Source: Labilithrix sp. (GTDB lineage: Bacteria; Myxococcota_A; Polyangia; Polyangiales; Polyangiaceae). Taken from it: a stretch of 64,000 nucleotides of DNA. Shown in pieces: positions 1 to 6,909 of the stretch. Location: the NCBI GenBank assembly GCA_026128965.1, contig JAHCIY010000002.1, forward strand, positions 1,384,108 to 1,448,107, read 5' to 3'. The stretch's first letter is position 1; each line of letters starts with the position of its first letter. Under the pieces are notes generated by a model, which worked only from the letters and a program-made list of their open reading frames with translations, made no database searches and had not been told where the DNA came from. Position numbers and translations under genes: made by a program.

Positions 1-1253
1 AAGGCTCCGAGCGCGGCAGGAACGCGCGCCACGTCGTCCGCCTCCTCGACGACCTCCGCGATCAGGGCGGCTCCCTCTCGAAGGGCGTCCCGATCAAGTC
101 GGGCGGGTCGCTCACCGTCTTCGTGCCGGCGCGCTTCCCGGAGCTGCCGACCGCGATCGACAAGCAGGCGATGGACGCCGCGATCCTGCAGACCGCCTTC
201 GAGGTCCGCGAGCAGAACGCGGGGTCGCCGACCATCTTCGTCACGATGGACACGAACCTCCGCATCCGGGCCGACGCGCTCGGCATGCCGGCGGAGACCT
301 ACGAGAACCAGCGCGTCACGCCCGAGCGCGTCGACACCGGCGTCACCGACGTCGAGGTGTCCGCCGACGAGATCGACGCCTTCTTCCAGGACGGCAAGAT
401 CCCGGTCCCGCCGCACCTCCTCGAGCCGCCGAAGGACGACAAGTCCGTCCGCGACCTCTCCCGCGCCGGAAAAGAAGGGCCCGCGCCGCTCATCGCGAAC
501 ATGTGCATCCTCCTCCGCGATCGGGCGAACGCGTCCCACACCGCGCTCGGCCGCTACGACGCGGGGAAGAAGGAGATCGTCGCGCTCCGCACCCCGCGCG
601 AGGGCGTCATCGGCGTGCGCCCGCGCAACAAGGAGCAGAGCCACGCGCTCGACATCCTCCTCGACGAGAACGTCCGCCTCGTCACGCTGATCGGGAAGGC
701 CGGCACCGGCAAGACGCTCCTCGCGCTCGCGGCTGGCCTCAAGCGCACGATCGAGGACGGCGTCTACACGCGCATGCTCGTCTCGCGCCCGGTCATGCCG
801 CTCGGCCGCGACATCGGCTTCTTGCCCGGCGACGTCGACGAGAAGCTGAACCCCTGGATGCAGCCGATCTTCGACAACCTCGAGTTCCTGTTCTCGAGCG
901 GCACGCGCAAGGGCCCCCGCGCCTACGCCGAGCTCCTCGACAGCGGCCAGCTCCAGGTCGAGCCGCTCACGTACATCCGCGGCCGCTCGCTCCCGCAGCA
1001 GTACATCATCGTCGACGAGGCGCAGAACCTCACCCCGCACGAGGTGAAGACGATCATCACGCGATCCGGAGATGGCACAAAAATCGTCCTTACCGGCGAT
1101 CCTGGGCAAATCGACAATCCGTACGTCGACAGCGCCTCGAACGGCCTCTCCGTCGCGGCGGACCGCTTCCGCGGCGAGAAGGTCGCCGCCCACATCACGC
1201 TGACGCGCGGCGAACGCAGCGAGCTCGCCGAGCTCGCCGCCAACCTGCTCTGA
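1..1253 (+). CDS. PhoH-like ATPase with N-terminal PIN domain (PhoH2/YlaK-type), 5'-partial
   Basis: The frame is open from the window edge. There is a Walker A GKAGTGKT and a PhoH C-terminal region (IIVDEAQNLTPHEVKTIITR...GDPGQID). The N-terminal part resembles a PIN domain. The in-window ATG at 123 is internal. Confidence 0.85.
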   Translation, partial: GSERGRNARHVVRLLDDLRDQGGSLSKGVPIKSGGSLTVFVPARFPELPTAIDKQAMDAAILQTAFEVREQNAGSPTIFVTMDTNLRIRADALGMPAETYENQRVTPERVDTGVTDVEVSADEIDAFFQDGKIPVPPHLLEPPKDDKSVRDLSRAGKEGPAPLIANMCILLRDRANASHTALGRYDAGKKEIVALRTPREGVIGVRPRNKEQSHALDILLDENVRLVTLIGKAGTGKTLLALAAGLKRTIEDGVYTRMLVSRPVMPLGRDIGFLPGDVDEKLNPWMQPIFDNLEFLFSSGTRKGPRAYAELLDSGQLQVEPLTYIRGRSLPQQYIIVDEAQNLTPHEVKTIITRSGDGTKIVLTGDPGQIDNPYVDSASNGLSVAADRFRGEKVAAHITLTRGERSELAELAANLL

Positions 1254-1259
1254 CCACGC

Positions 1260-2426
1260 TCACGGGTGGGCGAGGCGCATGAGGCGCTTGTTCGACGTCC
1301 AGTAGATGCCGGTCGACTCCACCCTCATGTCATGGAGGAGGGGATCCGAGTCGACCTCGAGGATCGGCGGCGCCCCCGCGTCGGCGCCGAGCGGCCATCG
1401 GCGCACGTCGCCGGTGTAGTAGTTGCCGAACCAGAAGGAGCCGTTCCACGGCTCGAGCTGGAACGCCATGACGTGGAGGTTCGAGTGGAGGCGAGGCGGC
1501 GTGCCGTCGGTGAGGTGCACGCTGGAGAGCTCGCTGCGGAGCACGAAGTAGGCGCGCGGGCCGATCACGGTGAGCGCGCTGATGCCGATGCCGCCGCCGA
1601 ACATGTTTTCGAAGAGCGTCCGCGGCGTCGGGTCGGTCGTCTGGGCGGTGCGGACCATCGCCGTTCCATCGGCCATGTACACCGCCCAGACGAGCGTCTG
1701 ACCGCTCACGACGAGCTGGTTGATCCCGTCCTCGTCCGCGGTAAAGACGGTGGGGCTCGCGCAGGTATCGCCGTCGCAGCGGTAGATATGGGTCGAGCGC
1801 ACGCCGTTCGTGACGTAGAGGCCGCTGTCGCCGGACGCGATCAGGTTCGGTTGCGGGAGGTTCGGGATCACCACCTCGGGCGTGCACGCTCCCGCCAGCG
1901 GACAGCGGACGACGCGCTTGCCCGGGTGGTCGCCGAAGTAGACGTGCTCGCCGCGCACGACGAGGTTCGTGCCCAGGCCCGCCGCGCCCGCGCTGTAGAG
2001 GGTCGCGACGGGGCCGCCGTAGATGGGGACGCGTTGCACGTCGCCTCCGCCGGTCTGGTAGTAGACGTGGCTCGAGGTGACGACGAAGGCCTCGGGGGTG
2101 TTCACGTCGATCGCGAGCACGCCCGGCTGGCAGACTCCTGCTTTGCACGCGCCCGGCCCGCAGTCGTGATCGCAGCGCCCGCAGTGACGGGGGTTGTTCG
2201 GGAGATCGACGCACAGTCCAGGCTCCGGCGGTCCCGGATCGGGCGTCGCGGCGTCGACGAGCGGCGTCGGCGGATCGTCGGGGTGGGAAGGCGCGCCCGT
2301 CTCCTCCGGCTCCGGCTCCGGCTCCGGCGATCGCGCGTCCGGCGCGTCGTGGACCGCGGGCTCGATCCCGAGGAGCGCGTTGCACCCCGCGAGGACGGCG
2401 AGCGTCGCGATCGCTGCGCGGCGCAT
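1260..2426 (-). CDS. Lipoprotein with Cys-rich EGF-like module and YWTD-type beta-propeller repeats
   Basis: ATG at 2424-2426 (MRRAAIATLAVLAGC lipobox). Cys cluster CVDLPNNPRHCGRCDHDCGPGACKAGVCQPG. Repeated HVYYQT, LYVTNG, LVWAVY and IYWTSN motifs. The N-terminal 250 aa of the 647-aa track ORF is an R-rich read-through artefact. The ATGA overlap with the upstream gene indicates an operon. Confidence 0.7.
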   Translation of the reverse strand: MRRAAIATLAVLAGCNALLGIEPAVHDAPDARSPEPEPEPEETGAPSHPDDPPTPLVDAATPDPGPPEPGLCVDLPNNPRHCGRCDHDCGPGACKAGVCQPGVLAIDVNTPEAFVVTSSHVYYQTGGGDVQRVPIYGGPVATLYSAGAAGLGTNLVVRGEHVYFGDHPGKRVVRCPLAGACTPEVVIPNLPQPNLIASGDSGLYVTNGVRSTHIYRCDGDTCASPTVFTADEDGINQLVVSGQTLVWAVYMADGTAMVRTAQTTDPTPRTLFENMFGGGIGISALTVIGPRAYFVLRSELSSVHLTDGTPPRLHSNLHVMAFQLEPWNGSFWFGNYYTGDVRRWPLGADAGAPPILEVDSDPLLHDMRVESTGIYWTSNKRLMRLAHP

Positions 2427-3337
2427 CAAAAGCTCGAGCTCCAGGTCGGGAGCCGCGCGCTCGGCGTCGCGCTCGGGGCCGTGAGCCAGATCGCGATCGC
2501 GGCCACGAGCATCGCGCCGCCGGCGATGAACCCGATCGTCGCGACGTTCCCGGCGGTGTTGGCGGAGCGCCACTCGTCGGCGCCCTCCTCGGTCGGGCAG
2601 CGGAAGCGGAAGGTCGTCTGCGGACAGAGGTCTTCGGCGCGGCTCCTCGACGAGAGGGCGAGCGCGCCCGCGATGCTGCCGACGACGAGCCCGGCGACGC
2701 CGCCGCCGCCGAGCGCGAGGGCGAGGGTGCGCCGCCCGGAGCCGGCGGGCGCGTCCGGCGCGGTGGGGGGTGCTTCGCGTCGCGGCGCCGCGAGCTCGGG
2801 CACGGCGACGACCGTGACGGCGCCCTCCTTCGCGGTCGCGGCGAGGCGGAGCGGCGCGCGCCCCGCGGCCGTCGCGGTCAGCGCGTGGGGGCCGGGATCG
2901 AGGACGTGCTCGTCGCGCCACGTCGCGCGCGGGACGACCGCGTCGTCGATCCGGATCTCGAGCCCGTTCGCCACCGACCTCACGTCGAGCTTCACCTTCG
3001 CGAGCCGCGGCGCGAGCGCGGCGGCGCGCTCCTTCGCGAGGCGCTCGCGCTCGAACTTGCCCGCCGCGTGCGCCAGTCGCGCGACGTCGAGGAACGTCGC
3101 GTGCGCCGACGCCGTGCGTCCGAGGTGCTCGTAACAGTCGGCGAGGTTGAAGCGCGTGCCGATCGCGGGCTCGAGCCGCTCGCTCTCCGCGAGCTTTGGA
3201 CATGCCTCTGCGTACTTGCCCTGCGCGACGAGCGCGTTGCCCTGGACGAAGAGCGCCTCGGCGTCGCCCCCGTCGGCGCTGGCGACCGCGGGTGTGCTCA
3301 CCAGGCCCAGGACGACGAGGAGCGTCGCGCGTCTCAT
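2426..3337 (-). CDS. Periplasmic TPR-like protein with C-terminal transmembrane anchor
   Basis: ATG at 3335-3337. Signal peptide MRRATLLVVLGLVSTPAVASA. TPR-like helices (ALFVQGNALVAQGKYAEAC...NLADCYEHLG). C-terminal hydrophobic segment. The stop overlaps the next gene's start (ATGA). Confidence 0.65.
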   Translation of the reverse strand: MRRATLLVVLGLVSTPAVASADGGDAEALFVQGNALVAQGKYAEACPKLAESERLEPAIGTRFNLADCYEHLGRTASAHATFLDVARLAHAAGKFERERLAKERAAALAPRLAKVKLDVRSVANGLEIRIDDAVVPRATWRDEHVLDPGPHALTATAAGRAPLRLAATAKEGAVTVVAVPELAAPRREAPPTAPDAPAGSGRRTLALALGGGGVAGLVVGSIAGALALSSRSRAEDLCPQTTFRFRCPTEEGADEWRSANTAGNVATIGFIAGGAMLVAAIAIWLTAPSATPSARLPTWSSSF

Positions 3338-3342
3338 CCCGG

Positions 3343-4410
3343 CTATTGTCTCACGAGCCGGACGAGCCGACTGCCGGCGTCGTCGGTGACGGCCCAGTAC
3401 AGCGTGCGGTCGGGGCCGATCGCGAGCGCGTGGGCGTTCGGTTGCTCCGCCGCGAGGACCGACGCGGGACTGGACGGCGTCTCGAGCGGGCGCACCAGCA
3501 CGGCACCGTGGGTCGTGTCGGTGTAGTAGATCTGTCCGCCGCGCACGACGAAGCTGCGGATGTCGCCGTCGGCGAGCCGGTGGTTGGGGCCGGCTCCGCC
3601 GAGCTGCGTTTGGTAGAGCCCGTCCGTGGTGGAGAACACGAGCCACGCGTCGGCGACCGACAGCGCGAAGACGCCGAGCGTACCGGCGTCTTGCGGGGGC
3701 GAGACGACGCGCTCGGGGCTTGCGCGCGAGAGGTCACGCGCGAAGATGGTGAGCGGTCCGTCGGCGACCGAGCTCGCCCATACCGCCTCGTCGCTGGTGC
3801 TCGTGATGCTCCAGATGATGCGAGCTCCGCCCTCGGCGATCTGCACGTCGCTGCCCGCGCACGGGAGCACGGGGCAGTGATAGAGGCCGCTGCCCCTCGC
3901 GTACGTGGCGCCAGGGCCTGCGACCGTGAAGATGGATGCGGGCGGCGGGACCACGCGCTCGGGGCCGGTCGCCGCGCACGCGCTCTCCGGGCAGCGGTGG
4001 ACGCCGGCTCTCAGGAAGTACACGGCGCCGTCTTTCGCGACGATCGTCGCGCCGAGTGAGTTCTCCGTGCTCTCGACGAAGGCCTCCGTCTCGCCACCCC
4101 CGATCGGTGCGCGTGAGATGGTGCGGCTCCTGCGGTTCGTCCAGAACACGTGCGTCGCGCCGACCGTGATGGCGTCGATGGCCATGTCCGTTGCGAGCAC
4201 GGCCACGCCGCCGTCCATTACCTCGGGGCGAACGACGCCCGCGCCGGCGTCGTTCGGCGTGACGTCGTCGTCGTCGTCGCCGCTCGGGGCGTCGCGCGGC
4301 ACATCGCGCTGGACGTCTCGTGGAGGATCGTACTCGCCCGCCTCGATGCCGAGGAGGGCGTTGCAGCCGCTCGCCGCGACGAGGAGCGCGAGGAGGGAGC
4401 GTCGCTTCAT
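3343..4410 (-). CDS. Lipoprotein with YWTD-type beta-propeller repeats (paralog of 1260..2426)
   Basis: MKRRSLLALLVAASGCNALLGIE has the same post-lipobox motif (CNALLGIE) as 1260..2426. Motifs HVFWTNR, AVYFLRAG, QIYYTDT and TLYWAVTDD. The start overlaps the kinase stop (ATGA at 4407-4410). Confidence 0.7.
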   Translation of the reverse strand: MKRRSLLALLVAASGCNALLGIEAGEYDPPRDVQRDVPRDAPSGDDDDDVTPNDAGAGVVRPEVMDGGVAVLATDMAIDAITVGATHVFWTNRRSRTISRAPIGGGETEAFVESTENSLGATIVAKDGAVYFLRAGVHRCPESACAATGPERVVPPPASIFTVAGPGATYARGSGLYHCPVLPCAGSDVQIAEGGARIIWSITSTSDEAVWASSVADGPLTIFARDLSRASPERVVSPPQDAGTLGVFALSVADAWLVFSTTDGLYQTQLGGAGPNHRLADGDIRSFVVRGGQIYYTDTTHGAVLVRPLETPSSPASVLAAEQPNAHALAIGPDRTLYWAVTDDAGSRLVRLVRQ

Positions 4411-5768
4411 TCGAAGCGCGACGTCGCGACGCCGCGGGGTGAGGACGCCGCGGGGGCGGACGGCTCGGGGTCGACCTCGGGCTTCGGCTCGAGCTTGGCC
4501 TCGGGTTGCTTGCGTGACTTCGTCTGCCGCTGCTTCGCGCTCGCGGGGGTCGTCGCGCGCGCTTGCAGCTCGGTGACCACGGCGGCCGGCGCGGCCGTCT
4601 CCGGCGTCGGCGCGGGCTCGGAGGCGACCTCGGCCACAGTCGCGTCAGGGGCCGCCGTTGGGGCTGGGGCCGGCGCCGGCCGCGACGCTGCGCCGACGCG
4701 CGCGCGTGGATATACCGCGATCGCCGCGCCGACGACGGCAGCCAGCGCGAGGAGGGCGAGGAGCGCGCCGCGCCGCGTTCTCGCGCGAGGCGCGGTCGCG
4801 ATCGGGCTGAGCGCCAGCGTGTGACGCTGCGCGAGCACGGTCTGCGGCAGGGTCGTGACCGGGAGGCTCGCGGGCGGGAGGCTCCCGGCCGTCATCGCGC
4901 CGACGGTGGGCGCGCCGACGCGGCCGGTCCCGAACGGCGCGATCGCCGCGGCGAACGAGGTGACGTCCGGGAAGCGGCGCTCGGCGGTCTTCTCGAGGCA
5001 ACACGCGATCGCGGCGGCGACCGGTGCGGGTACGGACACATCGAGCGGTGCCGGCGATTCGGTGAGCACCATCGCGTAGATGTCCGAGACGGTCGCGCCG
5101 TCGAAGGCGGGCTTGCCGGCGAGCAGCTCGTAGAGCGTCGCCCCGAGGGCCCAGACGTCCGTGCGACGATCGACGACCTTCGCCGAGCGCATCTGCTCGG
5201 GGGCCATGTAGAGCGGGGTGCCGACCACGTCTTGTGTGCGCGTGAAGCTCGGCGCCGCGTCGGACGTGGGCGCGGCCTTCGCGATTCCGAAGTCGAGCAC
5301 CTTGAGCGACGGCGTGCCGTCGGGTCGCGTCGTGAGGAAGAGGTTCGATGGCTTGACGTCGCGATGGACGATGCCGAGCGCGTGCGCCTCCGCGAGCGCG
5401 GTGCACGCCTGGAGGATGTGATCGATCGCGGTCGCGACCGGGAGCGCGCCGCGCGTCGCCACGAGCTTTCCGAGGTCGTTGCCCACCAGGTGCTCCATCA
5501 CGATATACGGCGGCTCCCCCGGAGACGATCCCACGTCGAGGACGCGCGCGACGTGCTCGCCGCGTATGCGCGCGGCCGCACGAGCCTCGCGGAGGAAGCG
5601 AGCGACGACGACCTCGTCGCGCGCGAGCTCTGCCTTCAGGACCTTGATCGCGACGCGCTCCCCGAGGACGAGGTGGGTGGCCTCGAGCACGATGCCGAAG
5701 CCGCCCTCGCCGAGCGTGCGCTCGACGAGGTACTTTCCGGCCAGGATCTGCCCGCGGTCTAGCGTCAC
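4407..5768 (-). CDS. Ser/Thr protein kinase, membrane-anchored, with Pro/Ala-rich extracytoplasmic tail
   Basis: Kinase motifs VAIKVLK, HRDVKPSNLF, DFG and APE. A TM segment (LLALLALAAVVGAAIAV) follows the kinase domain. GTG start at 5768. Confidence 0.85.
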   Translation of the reverse strand: MTLDRGQILAGKYLVERTLGEGGFGIVLEATHLVLGERVAIKVLKAELARDEVVVARFLREARAAARIRGEHVARVLDVGSSPGEPPYIVMEHLVGNDLGKLVATRGALPVATAIDHILQACTALAEAHALGIVHRDVKPSNLFLTTRPDGTPSLKVLDFGIAKAAPTSDAAPSFTRTQDVVGTPLYMAPEQMRSAKVVDRRTDVWALGATLYELLAGKPAFDGATVSDIYAMVLTESPAPLDVSVPAPVAAAIACCLEKTAERRFPDVTSFAAAIAPFGTGRVGAPTVGAMTAGSLPPASLPVTTLPQTVLAQRHTLALSPIATAPRARTRRGALLALLALAAVVGAAIAVYPRARVGAASRPAPAPAPTAAPDATVAEVASEPAPTPETAAPAAVVTELQARATTPASAKQRQTKSRKQPEAKLEPKPEVDPEPSAPAASSPRGVATSRFE

Positions 5769-5905
5769 CCTCGCGGTATAGCAGCGACCAACGTGTTTTC
5801 ACGTCGCGGGCGATGCAATTCGGAAGACAATGGTTCCGAAGGGTTGCGGTATCGTCGCGCCAGCCCAGCTCCGGCGGCGCCCGGCGCTCGGGGTCCGACC
5901 GCTGT

Positions 5906-6442
5906 ATGCTTCCGCCGATGGTGTATCGTGACGCCGAAGCGGTGACGCGGCTCGCCGTGCTCGTCGTCGCGCTCGCGCTCGGCGGTTGCTCGTCGATCGG
6001 CGGGAGCGCGGTGCGGACGGGGCCGGTGCAGCTCGGCGCGTACTCCGGTCCGGTCGCGATCTACGCGACGGGCCGCCCGCCGCCGGACGCGGTCGATCTC
6101 GGCGTCGTCGAGGTGCACGCGATGCAGCAGGAGGCGACGGTCGAGACGCTCCTCCCGCAGTTCCTCGCGCGCGTCGCGGCGATCGGCGGCAACGTCGCCG
6201 TCATCGAGGGCACGCGCGCGCGCTTCGAGCTCGCGGGGCGCATGCACGTCGAGCAGTACTACTACACGTGCAGCCTCGGCGCGACGTGCTCCGGTACTCG
6301 TGTGTATTCTACAAATGACGAGCTGATGACGCTCTCGATGTTCGGGCGCGCGATGACGACGCAGCTCCCCCCCTCGAAGGACGGGCCGCTCCTCCCGCCG
6401 GCGCCTTCGCCTCCCCTCGAGCCAGAGGACAGCGAGCTGTGA
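5906..6442 (+). CDS. Lipoprotein, YbjQ/DUF74-like domain
   Basis: Signal peptide with lipobox LALGGC. The segment ...ARVAAIGGNVAVIEG resembles the YbjQ/UPF0145 LGA(N/D)AVV(G) motif. The start is uncertain (5906 or 5918). Confidence 0.55.
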   Translation: MLPPMVYRDAEAVTRLAVLVVALALGGCSSIGGSAVRTGPVQLGAYSGPVAIYATGRPPPDAVDLGVVEVHAMQQEATVETLLPQFLARVAAIGGNVAVIEGTRARFELAGRMHVEQYYYTCSLGATCSGTRVYSTNDELMTLSMFGRAMTTQLPPSKDGPLLPPAPSPPLEPEDSEL

Positions 6443-6909
6443 CCCGCCTCTCCGTGCTCCTCCCGCTCTCCGTGCTCCTCGTCGCGTGCGGCCACACCGA
6501 GACGCACCAGGCGATGTTCCGCGCGCCGGAGCCCCCGACCGGCCGCCCGGTGGAGCTCTACCTCGCCGATCAGCCGCTCCCGACCCGCCCCTACTACGAG
6601 ATCGCGCTCGTGCAGGCGATCGGCTTCGGGAGCGAGGCGCATCCGGACGACGTCGCGCAGGCGCTGACGGAGAAGGCGGCCAAGCTCGGGTGCGACGCGG
6701 TCGTGCGCACGTTCCTCGATCAAGGTTATTCGCGCGCCAACGCCGCCGGCGTCTGCGTGAAATGGGTCGGTCCCCCGCAGGCGGCCGGCGCGGCCCCGGC
6801 CGGCGCGCTCCCCCGAGACAACACCGCGCCGCGGCCTTCGACCCCGCTCGTTCCCGCGCCTTCGCCGCGGATCGAGCCGCTCCCGTCCAACCCGTCGCAA
6901 GGGCGGTAG
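6439..6909 (+). CDS. Lipoprotein, YbjQ/DUF74-like domain (paralog)
   Basis: MTRLSVLLPLSVLLVAC lipobox. The ...EKAAKLGCDAVV motif. ATGA overlap with the preceding gene. Pro-rich C-terminus. Confidence 0.55.
   Translation: MTRLSVLLPLSVLLVACGHTETHQAMFRAPEPPTGRPVELYLADQPLPTRPYYEIALVQAIGFGSEAHPDDVAQALTEKAAKLGCDAVVRTFLDQGYSRANAAGVCVKWVGPPQAAGAAPAGALPRDNTAPRPSTPLVPAPSPRIEPLPSNPSQGR

Follow-up and report, generated by a model that had tools for sequence, protein, structure and literature searches.

In several envelope-sensing systems, such as NlpE-CpxA, RcsF-IgaA-Rcs, QseG-QseE, and LpqB-MtrB, a lipoprotein with a flexible linker signals to an inner-membrane kinase that has no adequate sensor of its own. 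These accessory-lipoprotein sensors involve histidine kinases and lipoproteins of unrelated folds, and to our knowledge none of those named here includes an adaptor built of tetratricopeptide repeats (TPR) and a PEGA domain, or a multi-copy cassette of exchangeable bodies. TPR domains are known as peptide-binding clamps in Hop and CHIP, which bind the C-terminal EEVD of Hsp70/Hsp90. For most eukaryotic-like Ser/Thr kinases of myxobacteria, both the signal and the sensor are unknown, and many of these kinases have no extracytoplasmic domain. Myxobacterial sets of eukaryotic-like kinases are among the largest in bacteria (PMC2887360), and a receptor Ser/Thr kinase with a propeller sensor has been described in Mycobacterium tuberculosis, namely PknD (PMC6213207, PMC1847690). 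Here we analyzed a stretch of 64,000 nucleotides from the soil myxobacterium Labilithrix sp. (assembly GCA_026128965.1, contig JAHCIY010000002.1, positions 1,384,108 to 1,448,107; the whole stretch is hereafter called the window), in which a four-gene locus on the minus strand encodes a kinase, two lipoproteins (A and B), and a TPR membrane protein that we named g3. We consider it somewhat probable that this locus is a chromosomal "split" receptor Ser/Thr kinase system, composed of the kinase, the adaptor g3, and the sensor lipoproteins.

An earlier inspection of the letters of the window (hereafter the sequence-only reading) had placed four co-directional minus-strand genes here, and the open reading frames confirm them. 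The first gene encodes a Hanks-type Ser/Thr kinase (4407-5768, 453 amino acids), the second lipoprotein A (3343-4410, 355 amino acids), the third g3 (2426-3337, 303 amino acids), and the last lipoprotein B (1260-2426, 388 amino acids); all coordinates given below for parts of these genes are likewise on the minus strand. Lipoproteins A and B are identical in sequence to KIT84_18000 and KIT84_17990, respectively, of a Labilithrix sp. metagenome-assembled genome. Translational coupling had also been proposed, and it stands for the ATGA overlap between the kinase and lipoprotein A (4407-4410) and for the 5-nucleotide gap between lipoprotein A and g3 (3338-3342), whereas the junction of g3 and lipoprotein B at 2426 is a 1-nucleotide TGATG overlap and not an ATGA. 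Because the junctions overlap or nearly overlap and a signal scan of the four-gene block detected no promoter-like site and only one terminator-like site, which is at chance level, the four genes are considered to form an operon. The G+C content is 68-77% across the first 12 kb of the window, and no additional paralogue of g3, the kinase, or the lipoproteins was detected when all 64 kb were searched.

The kinase carries a complete catalytic domain (Pkinase, PF00069; residues 14-265, 4974-5729) whose score of 149.8 bits (E-value 1.2e-43) is far above the cut-off of 31.7 bits and assigns it to the Hanks-type family, and all catalytic motifs are found in the translation, including the GxGxxG loop (GEGGFG), VAIK (VAIKVLK), HRD (HRDVKPSN), DFG, and APE. 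Downstream of this domain there is a single transmembrane helix (residues 334-352, GALLALLALAAVVGAAIAV; 4713-4769; mean Kyte-Doolittle hydropathy of 2.62 over 19 residues), followed by a low-complexity tail of 106 residues with 28 Ala and 18 Pro, which is predicted to be disordered and periplasmic. The membrane Ser/Thr kinase with a Pro/Ala-rich extracytoplasmic tail had thus been recognized correctly. The kinase scores 246 bits against the NCBIfam model PknB_PASTA_kin, for which 450 bits are required, with the match confined to the kinase domain, so that it does not qualify as a PASTA-type kinase, and a scan with NCBIfam models found no PASTA or other sensor domain in it. Since it consists of a kinase domain with one transmembrane helix and a low-complexity tail, the kinase appears to be sensor-less. 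The same build is common to 47 kinases from related cassettes, whose tails are 78-137 residues long (median 108).

Conservation of the cassette was examined by scanning a genome collection with the g3 alignment, which identified 276 relatives; the counts below come from the best 80 loci, annotated with hidden Markov models (HMMs). These best 80 of the 276 loci all belong to Polyangia (Labilithrix, Polyangiaceae, Minicystis, and Byssovorax), several genomes contain multiple copies of g3, and Labilithrix luteola DSM 27648 has at least three cassettes (L019, at approximately 11.118-11.122 Mb of NZ_CP012333.1, L067, and L076). A co-directional kinase gene is located directly upstream of g3 in 54 of the 80 loci (52 of 71 if only loci with sufficient sequence upstream are counted), and a propeller lipoprotein gene lies directly downstream in the same direction in 27 loci and in convergent orientation in 3 further ones. 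The full trio, in the order kinase, g3, and propeller lipoprotein, is present in 23/80 loci, and two tandem lipoprotein genes follow g3 in 4/80. A lipoprotein is carried by all 14 loci of the closest g3 homologues. Among contigs that encode lipoprotein homologues, four independent loci from metagenomes (L002, L006, L007, and L010) also have the trio; their products share 38-54% (kinase), 35-53% (g3), and 28-30% (lipoprotein) identity with those of the window. In addition, four syntenic orthologues of the window locus (L013, L017, L020, and L025) were found, each with the trio only, and a fifth locus (L018) shares the side of the neighboring PhoH gene. The syntenic flanks are well conserved (85-88% identity for PhoH and 64-81% for four upstream genes), and identity is 49-62% for the kinase and 49-57% for g3 but just 25-37% for the lipoprotein.

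Thus, the conserved unit is the trio of kinase, g3, and lipoprotein, which exists in Polyangia as many paralogous copies that arose by amplification. Within the cassette, the lipoprotein body evolves fastest and is exchanged most readily. The window has the same gene order, the same type of kinase C-terminal peptide, and the same lipoprotein N-terminus as the other cassettes, with lipoprotein A inserted in addition. None of the 80 loci places a lipoprotein gene between the kinase and g3, and lipoprotein A is therefore lineage-specific; no relative of it above 27% identity was found among 5.8 billion proteins. The sequence-only reading had named conservation of the four genes as a unit as a check; the trio is retained across loci, whereas the lipoprotein A slot is not, and the four-gene form is a lineage-specific elaboration with lipoprotein A as an extra lineage-specific paralogue. 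A literature search for this kinase-g3-lipoprotein cassette found no description of it.

Two short terminal motifs accompany the trio. Motif enrichment identified the mature N-terminus CNALLGIE in both lipoprotein A (Cys16-Glu23, 4342-4365) and lipoprotein B (Cys15-Glu22, 2361-2384), and g3-linked lipoproteins in general share a mature N-terminus of the form C-N-x-L-L-G-[IN]-E, whatever globular domain follows. The 87 Polyangia loci and the window, approximately 1.0 Mb in total, encode 130 predicted lipoproteins; the motif is carried by 21 of the 29 whose genes immediately follow g3 and by 3 of the other 101 (Fisher's exact test, p = 8e-15). A looser scan detected 57 occurrences, 46 of them just after g3 and the rest mostly in second tandem copies or lipoprotein A. 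In g3 loci without a propeller, a lipoprotein gene is still usually the next one, often with an overlapping start, and its product has the N-terminus C-N-x-[LIV]-L-[GD]-[IN]. The bodies of these non-propeller lipoproteins match Big_5 (E-value 1e-18), weakly match Laminin_G_3 (lectin-like), GH12-like, or SBBP models, or have no Pfam match. A general lipoprotein sorting signal of Polyangia was also considered for CNALLGIE and was rejected, as 98 of the 101 other predicted lipoproteins do not have the motif.

The second motif is located at the extreme C-terminus of the kinase. In the window it is ATSRFE-COOH (4410-4427), a version of A[TS]SR[YF][DE]-COOH, with which 16 class-1 cassette kinases end, the window's included. 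When these 16 kinases are aligned, the top residue reaches a frequency of 0.85 across the final 8 columns, compared with 0.38 across the 90 tail columns before them; more distant cassette kinases end with …LF[DE]xRK, …DRHG, or …IGRR. Because the Ser and Arg codons vary synonymously, selection on this terminus appears to act at the protein level. At the nucleotide level, the kinase/g3 junctions of L002, L006, L007, and L013-L025 (e.g., L007:1040-1050) contain a nearly invariant TAT GAT TGA, which embeds the overlapping ATG of g3 (ATGATTGA) and represents AT-rich codons in genomes of approximately 72% G+C; it is probably a conserved translational-coupling junction. The window has TTC GAA TGA instead, overlapping the start of lipoprotein A. 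Motif classes are associated with different lipoproteins: kinases ending with SSRYD accompany strong propeller lipoproteins, those with DRHG accompany propeller lipoproteins that are often in tandem, and those with LFxxRK are mostly found with other bodies. A pure nucleotide constraint or ribosome-binding site was examined as an explanation of the kinase motif and was partly rejected, considering the synonymous variation of Ser and Arg, but the codons of the Y-D pair do embed the ATG.

The third conserved component, g3, is predicted to be exported and anchored in the membrane, with a signal peptide, a putative pair of TPRs, a putative β-domain similar to PEGA and CarboxypepD_reg, a Pro-rich linker, and two hydrophobic helices. 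Its TPR-like region (residues 20-90, 3068-3280) was identified from a weak match in the window protein (24.4 bits for TPR_2, below the 27-bit cut-off), from homologues (44/45 match TPR_2, best E-value 1e-8), and from the g3 family profile, which matches consensus TPR proteins and the TPR region of LapB (E-value ~1e-3). The β-domain (approximately residues 113-182, 2792-3001) would be present by comparison with homologues, 15/45 of which match CarboxypepD_reg and 8/45 PEGA, though weakly (best E-value 1.6e-4), while no Pfam model matches this part of g3 in the window; an invariant DPGxH-type motif is found in this domain. Hydropathy, alignment, and a structural model suggest a C-terminal helical hairpin with hydrophobic residues 205-223 and 265-283 (2489-2725), and the loop of approximately 40 residues between the two helices contains a conserved CxxxxxxxxC. 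Six residues are invariant in 45 g3 homologues (C46, C68, D147, G149, C238, and C247); of the four Cys among them, two belong to the TPR region and the other two to the inter-helix loop. A single-sequence AlphaFold2 model of g3 has a mean predicted local distance difference test (pLDDT) score of 52 and β-strands at residues 117-179, and agrees with these assignments in secondary structure only. A signal-peptide TPR protein with a C-terminal transmembrane segment had been proposed for this gene; the signal peptide and the TPR-like N-terminus hold, but there are two hydrophobic segments and an additional β-domain.

Lipoproteins A and B can be aligned end to end (25% identity, BLASTP E-value 1e-15) and are distant paralogues; the HMM of the propeller lipoprotein family matches both at full length (288 bits for A and 401 bits for B). 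Each has a signal peptide and a lipobox (tested with the pattern [LVI][ASTVI][GAS]C) and is predicted to be lipidated. The lipobox is the canonical LAG before the Cys in B and ASG, with a non-canonical Ala at -3, in A. Two paralogous lipoproteins, as first proposed, are therefore encoded here. Lipoprotein B consists of the lipobox, the conserved tether, a Pro/Asp/Glu linker of approximately 55 residues, a Stig1-type six-Cys knot, and a seven-bladed β-propeller, and lipoprotein A of the lipobox, the conserved tether, a short acidic linker, and a predicted seven-repeat propeller, with no Cys knot.

The propeller of lipoprotein B (residues 100-388, 1263-2129) was identified by a structural model, a fold search, profile comparison, and sequence repeats. 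The model, built from a 16-sequence alignment, has a pLDDT of 80.9 and a predicted template modeling score of 0.77; it shows disorder in residues 1-60 and an all-β region of approximately 27 strands in residues 100-388, and the sequence contains seven repeats of approximately 42 residues anchored on a Φ-[YW]-[YWF] strand. The sequence-only reading had expected six blades, which structure prediction was to check; lipoprotein B is instead confidently predicted to form a seven-bladed propeller, and lipoprotein A, as its paralogue, should adopt a propeller fold as well. When the lipoprotein B model was compared with Foldseek, BamB structures ranked among its top matches. Profile comparisons gave E-values of 1e-54 to 1e-25 for LRP4, LRP2, and LRP6, 8e-15 for LDLR, 1e-21 for the Pizza designs derived from PknD, 6e-17 for the M. 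tuberculosis PknD sensor (1rwi), 4e-13 for the seven-bladed DUF5050 structure 3s25, and 2e-11 for Vgb lyase. The alignments to the YWTD propellers of LRP4 and LRP6 span 200 residues (per-domain E-values down to 8e-17), and the "hVYWTn" strand of the family falls on the YWTD strand.

Neither lipoprotein of the window reaches the threshold of any Pfam propeller model, and neither matches Ldl_recept_b at E-value ≤1; in the family, 2/16 members match Ldl_recept_b weakly (best E-value 5e-4), and sub-threshold matches to DUF5050 and Vgb_lyase were found in 6/16 and 4/16 members, respectively. Lipoprotein A scores 13.9 bits for DUF5050 and 17.9 bits for Vgb_lyase, for which the cut-offs are 27 and 50, and is a member of neither family by score. 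In profile comparisons the blades clearly fall into the YWTD/NHL repeat class, and the propeller belongs to a continuum of DUF5050, Vgb-lyase, NHL, and YWTD repeats and not to the LDLR-type six-bladed YWTD domains. The YWTD-like repeats originally noticed in both lipoproteins are accordingly recovered at the profile level (LRP4, LRP2, LRP6, and LDLR, with E-values of the order of 1e-54 to 1e-15) but not by the Ldl_recept_b model.

The Cys-rich module of lipoprotein B (residues 71-99, 2130-2216) is similar to Pfam Stig1 (PF04885). Its six Cys are spaced as C-x10-C-x2-C-x3-C-x4-C-x4-C, with no EGF-type C-x-C. The isolated 40-residue module scores 26.1 bits (cut-off 24.1) over profile positions 52-83 of 85, Stig1 reaches only 20.6 bits when the whole protein is scanned, so that the match is partial and borderline, and 9/16 family members match Stig1. 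When isolated, the module has no match to EGF or PSI models at E-value ≤10, and its nearest NCBIfam family is the MXAN_6577-like Cys-rich family (E-value 2e-5). The cluster had been described as EGF/PSI-like, and this assignment is replaced by a Stig1-type one; because the module is Stig1-like and not EGF/PSI, the proposed "LDLR-ectodomain-like combination" is an analogy and not homology.

Word-indexed searches with the lipoproteins returned few relatives. Exhaustive HMMER searches with the family profile detected 66,545 cluster representatives at E-value ≤1e-3, 31,072 at ≤1e-10, and 5,551 at ≤1e-30, and the same six-Cys knot is present in 82 of the 85 top matches of 330-460 residues, most of which start with "…LGCNA[IL]LGNESAVF". 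The combination had been thought rare in bacteria, a view that these numbers contradict; the architecture of lipobox-tether, Stig1 knot, and propeller is unannotated yet abundant. A Rosetta-stone search of the top 150 family representatives found no kinase or g3 fused to a propeller. We also observed giant multi-propeller proteins, including P0023 (3322 residues), P0024 (4911 residues), P0103 (6267 residues), and approximately 50 other long HMMER matches, which have up to 27 stretches matching the same propeller profile and are presumably secreted or located on the surface.

With regard to how the components could work together, we infer that a variable sensor lipoprotein is connected to the kinase by g3, acting as a scaffold. 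As TPR clamps do with C-terminal EEVD peptides, the TPR groove of g3 would bind the C-terminal peptide of the kinase, and g3 may also bind the N-terminal tether of the lipoprotein. Such a scaffold would place the ligand-binding propeller beside the kinase, and a ligand on the propeller would alter clustering or dimerization of the kinase and hence its autophosphorylation. Lipoprotein A, gained in this lineage, would provide a further input, as a second or alternative receptor or as a co-receptor. The kinase tail of approximately 100 residues and the lipoprotein linker of approximately 55 residues, both disordered, fit a connection across the periplasm. A sensor function is a natural reading because in PknD the kinase and a propeller of this repeat class form a single protein. 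The original idea of an extracytoplasmic sensing module feeding a eukaryotic-like kinase therefore remains the best reading, in view of the conserved linkage and the sensor-less kinase, although its details (six blades, EGF/PSI modules, rarity, and a four-gene unit) do not hold.

Several observations weigh against the split-receptor interpretation. Approximately one quarter of g3 genes have no adjacent kinase gene and many have no recognizable lipoprotein, and no g3 gene precedes P0002 of L009, which at 42% identity is the nearest homologue of lipoprotein B. The model of g3 was built from a single sequence (pLDDT 52), so that its TPR groove and membrane topology are putative, and the invariant Cys pair would be odd if the inter-helix loop were cytoplasmic. 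With regard to the motifs, the last two kinase residues may be under constraint at the DNA level, where the g3 ATG is embedded, and common descent may account for the co-variation of motif class and lipoprotein type. Furthermore, pairs of a TPR protein and a propeller lipoprotein are known from envelope-assembly machines such as BamD/BamB.

The main rival is an envelope-assembly/effector complex under kinase control. In this alternative, which we think rather unlikely, g3 and the propeller lipoproteins would have no sensor role and would instead assemble or remodel the envelope, in the periplasm or at the outer membrane, comparable to BamD/BamB or LpoA/LpoB. Regulation between this factor and the kinase could run in either direction, for example through phosphorylation of the g3 inter-helix loop. 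Such a housekeeping role would not be expected to give rise to many divergent cassettes per genome, as in L. luteola with at least 3, and does not easily explain why the lipoprotein body is swapped for unrelated domains or why lipoproteins are only approximately 30% identical between syntenic orthologues whose neighbors are 86% identical. It is nevertheless consistent with BamB among the top Foldseek matches, with the match of the g3 profile to the LapB TPR region (E-value ~1e-3), and with those g3 and lipoprotein genes that occur without a kinase, and the conserved loop of approximately 40 residues in g3 could be a kinase substrate if it is cytoplasmic.

A polymorphic, surface-exposed recognition receptor (for kin, prey, phage, or matrix), which would be under diversifying selection and would signal binding to the kinase, is one specific form of the sensor model, with a biotic ligand, to which we assign a low probability. 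The much faster divergence of the lipoprotein than of the kinase, g3, and the flanks agrees with it but may arise simply because a β-propeller scaffold is under relaxed constraint; tandem duplication of the lipoprotein in four loci and in the window also points in this direction, as do the Cys-rich modules and the giant multi-propeller relatives, both of which are typical for proteins that are secreted or located on the surface. Finally, a rare bacterial homologue of the LDL-receptor ectodomain (a six-bladed YWTD propeller with EGF/PSI modules) is highly improbable, since the profile alignment to the LRP4/LRP6 YWTD propellers with its matched YWTD strand, and a small disulfide-rich module that precedes the propeller as in LDLR, are set against seven blades without an Ldl_recept_b match in the window lipoproteins, a Stig1-type module with no C-x-C and no EGF/PSI match at E-value ≤10, the abundance of the architecture, and NHL/PknD, Vgb lyase, and DUF5050 propellers that match comparably.

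Beyond the split receptor of the window, it is possible, though we propose this only tentatively, that Polyangia have modular "plug-and-play" trans-envelope receptors, in which g3 reads a class-specific kinase peptide together with the lipoprotein tether, lipoprotein domains (propeller, Ig-like, lectin-like, and others) are exchanged for new inputs, and the motifs insulate paralogous cassettes from each other. If this is true, such receptors would explain the inputs of a large share of the myxobacterial kinome. The multi-copy cassette offers a testable route to the inputs of sensor-less kinases, with defined peptides and defined partners, and L. luteola DSM 27648 is a cultivable carrier of it. 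The analysis also defines a large unannotated family, composed of a lipobox-tether, a Stig1 knot, and a seven-bladed propeller, whose members are "hypothetical" in Pfam and NCBIfam.

Some variant loci were observed as well. On the 2.2-kb contig of L009, P0002 (803-1948) is followed from approximately 1987 by another lipoprotein with a CNALLGIES tether, apparently a tandem pair detached from the kinase and g3. In L011 (1235-4382; GCA_964601195.1, CAZRMU010000476.1), the gene of a family lipoprotein of 355 residues (P0012) overlaps a directly preceding gene for an FHA and sigma-54 activator protein, and a g3-like fragment converges on it; because FHA domains read phospho-threonine, this locus may represent a version without a kinase that is connected to transcription. 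In L077 (7056-8276) and L089 (4133-5326), g3 is followed by a secreted protein of approximately 400 residues that is not a lipoprotein and starts with …HPWMIRH[HG]Y[TS]AC..CHYDPSGAG; its CxxCH-like motif suggests a heme or metal site, and it may be another type of partner for g3. A second Ser/Thr kinase gene is found approximately 4 kb downstream of the cassette, past PhoH, in L013 (12107-12796) and L017 (12178-12864); the corresponding site of the Labilithrix sp. genome lies before position 1 of the window.

As for the surroundings of the locus in the window, a PhoH/PIN gene (123-1253, plus strand) converges on lipoprotein B, and as the two stop codons are 6 nucleotides apart, there is no space for a terminator between them; this convergence (1253-1260) is kept in L013, L017, L018, L020, and L025. 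Upstream of the kinase and divergent from it are genes for two small lipoproteins, a PFOR-like gene, and a gene with an FGE-sulfatase domain. The two small predicted lipoproteins (5813-6909, plus strand) have no Pfam match, and their signals end with …LALGG before CSSIGGS (at ~5987) and …LLVA before CGHTETHQ (at ~6487); both are found at the same position, with 66-81% identity, in the syntenic L013, L017, L020, and L025.

When compared with known systems, the cassette falls among receptor Ser/Thr kinases and accessory-lipoprotein sensors and is not a new category. A propeller lipoprotein and a TPR protein in the envelope are also found in BamB/BamD, but BamB has eight blades, is single-copy and conserved, has no link to a kinase, and shows no sequence-level relationship to the cassette lipoproteins. 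The seven blades are shared with DUF5050 (3s25) and virginiamycin B lyase, which are the best, though sub-threshold, Pfam neighbors; these have no lipobox and tether, Cys knot, or kinase or TPR partner, and nothing in the window lipoproteins points to the lyase chemistry of Vgb lyase. The blade motifs align with those of LDLR, LRP4, and LRP6 at the profile level, and a disulfide-rich module adjoins the propeller in both cases, but the receptors have six blades and EGF modules, whereas the lipoproteins of the cassette have seven blades and lipoprotein B a Stig1-type knot. With TPR clamps, the cassette would share a conserved extreme C-terminal peptide on a disordered tail and an adjoining TPR gene; it differs in its periplasmic location, its motif, and its approximately two TPR units, and the binding is hypothetical. 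PknD is similar in combining a Hanks-type membrane kinase with a β-propeller outside the cytoplasm, and the propellers of both systems belong to one repeat superclass (1rwi, E-value 6e-17), but the PknD propeller is a six-bladed NHL domain fused to the kinase, whereas here a seven-bladed propeller is carried by a separate lipoprotein and linked through a TPR-PEGA protein by genetics. By analogy, the proposed logic of the cassette would be that of the accessory-lipoprotein sensors.

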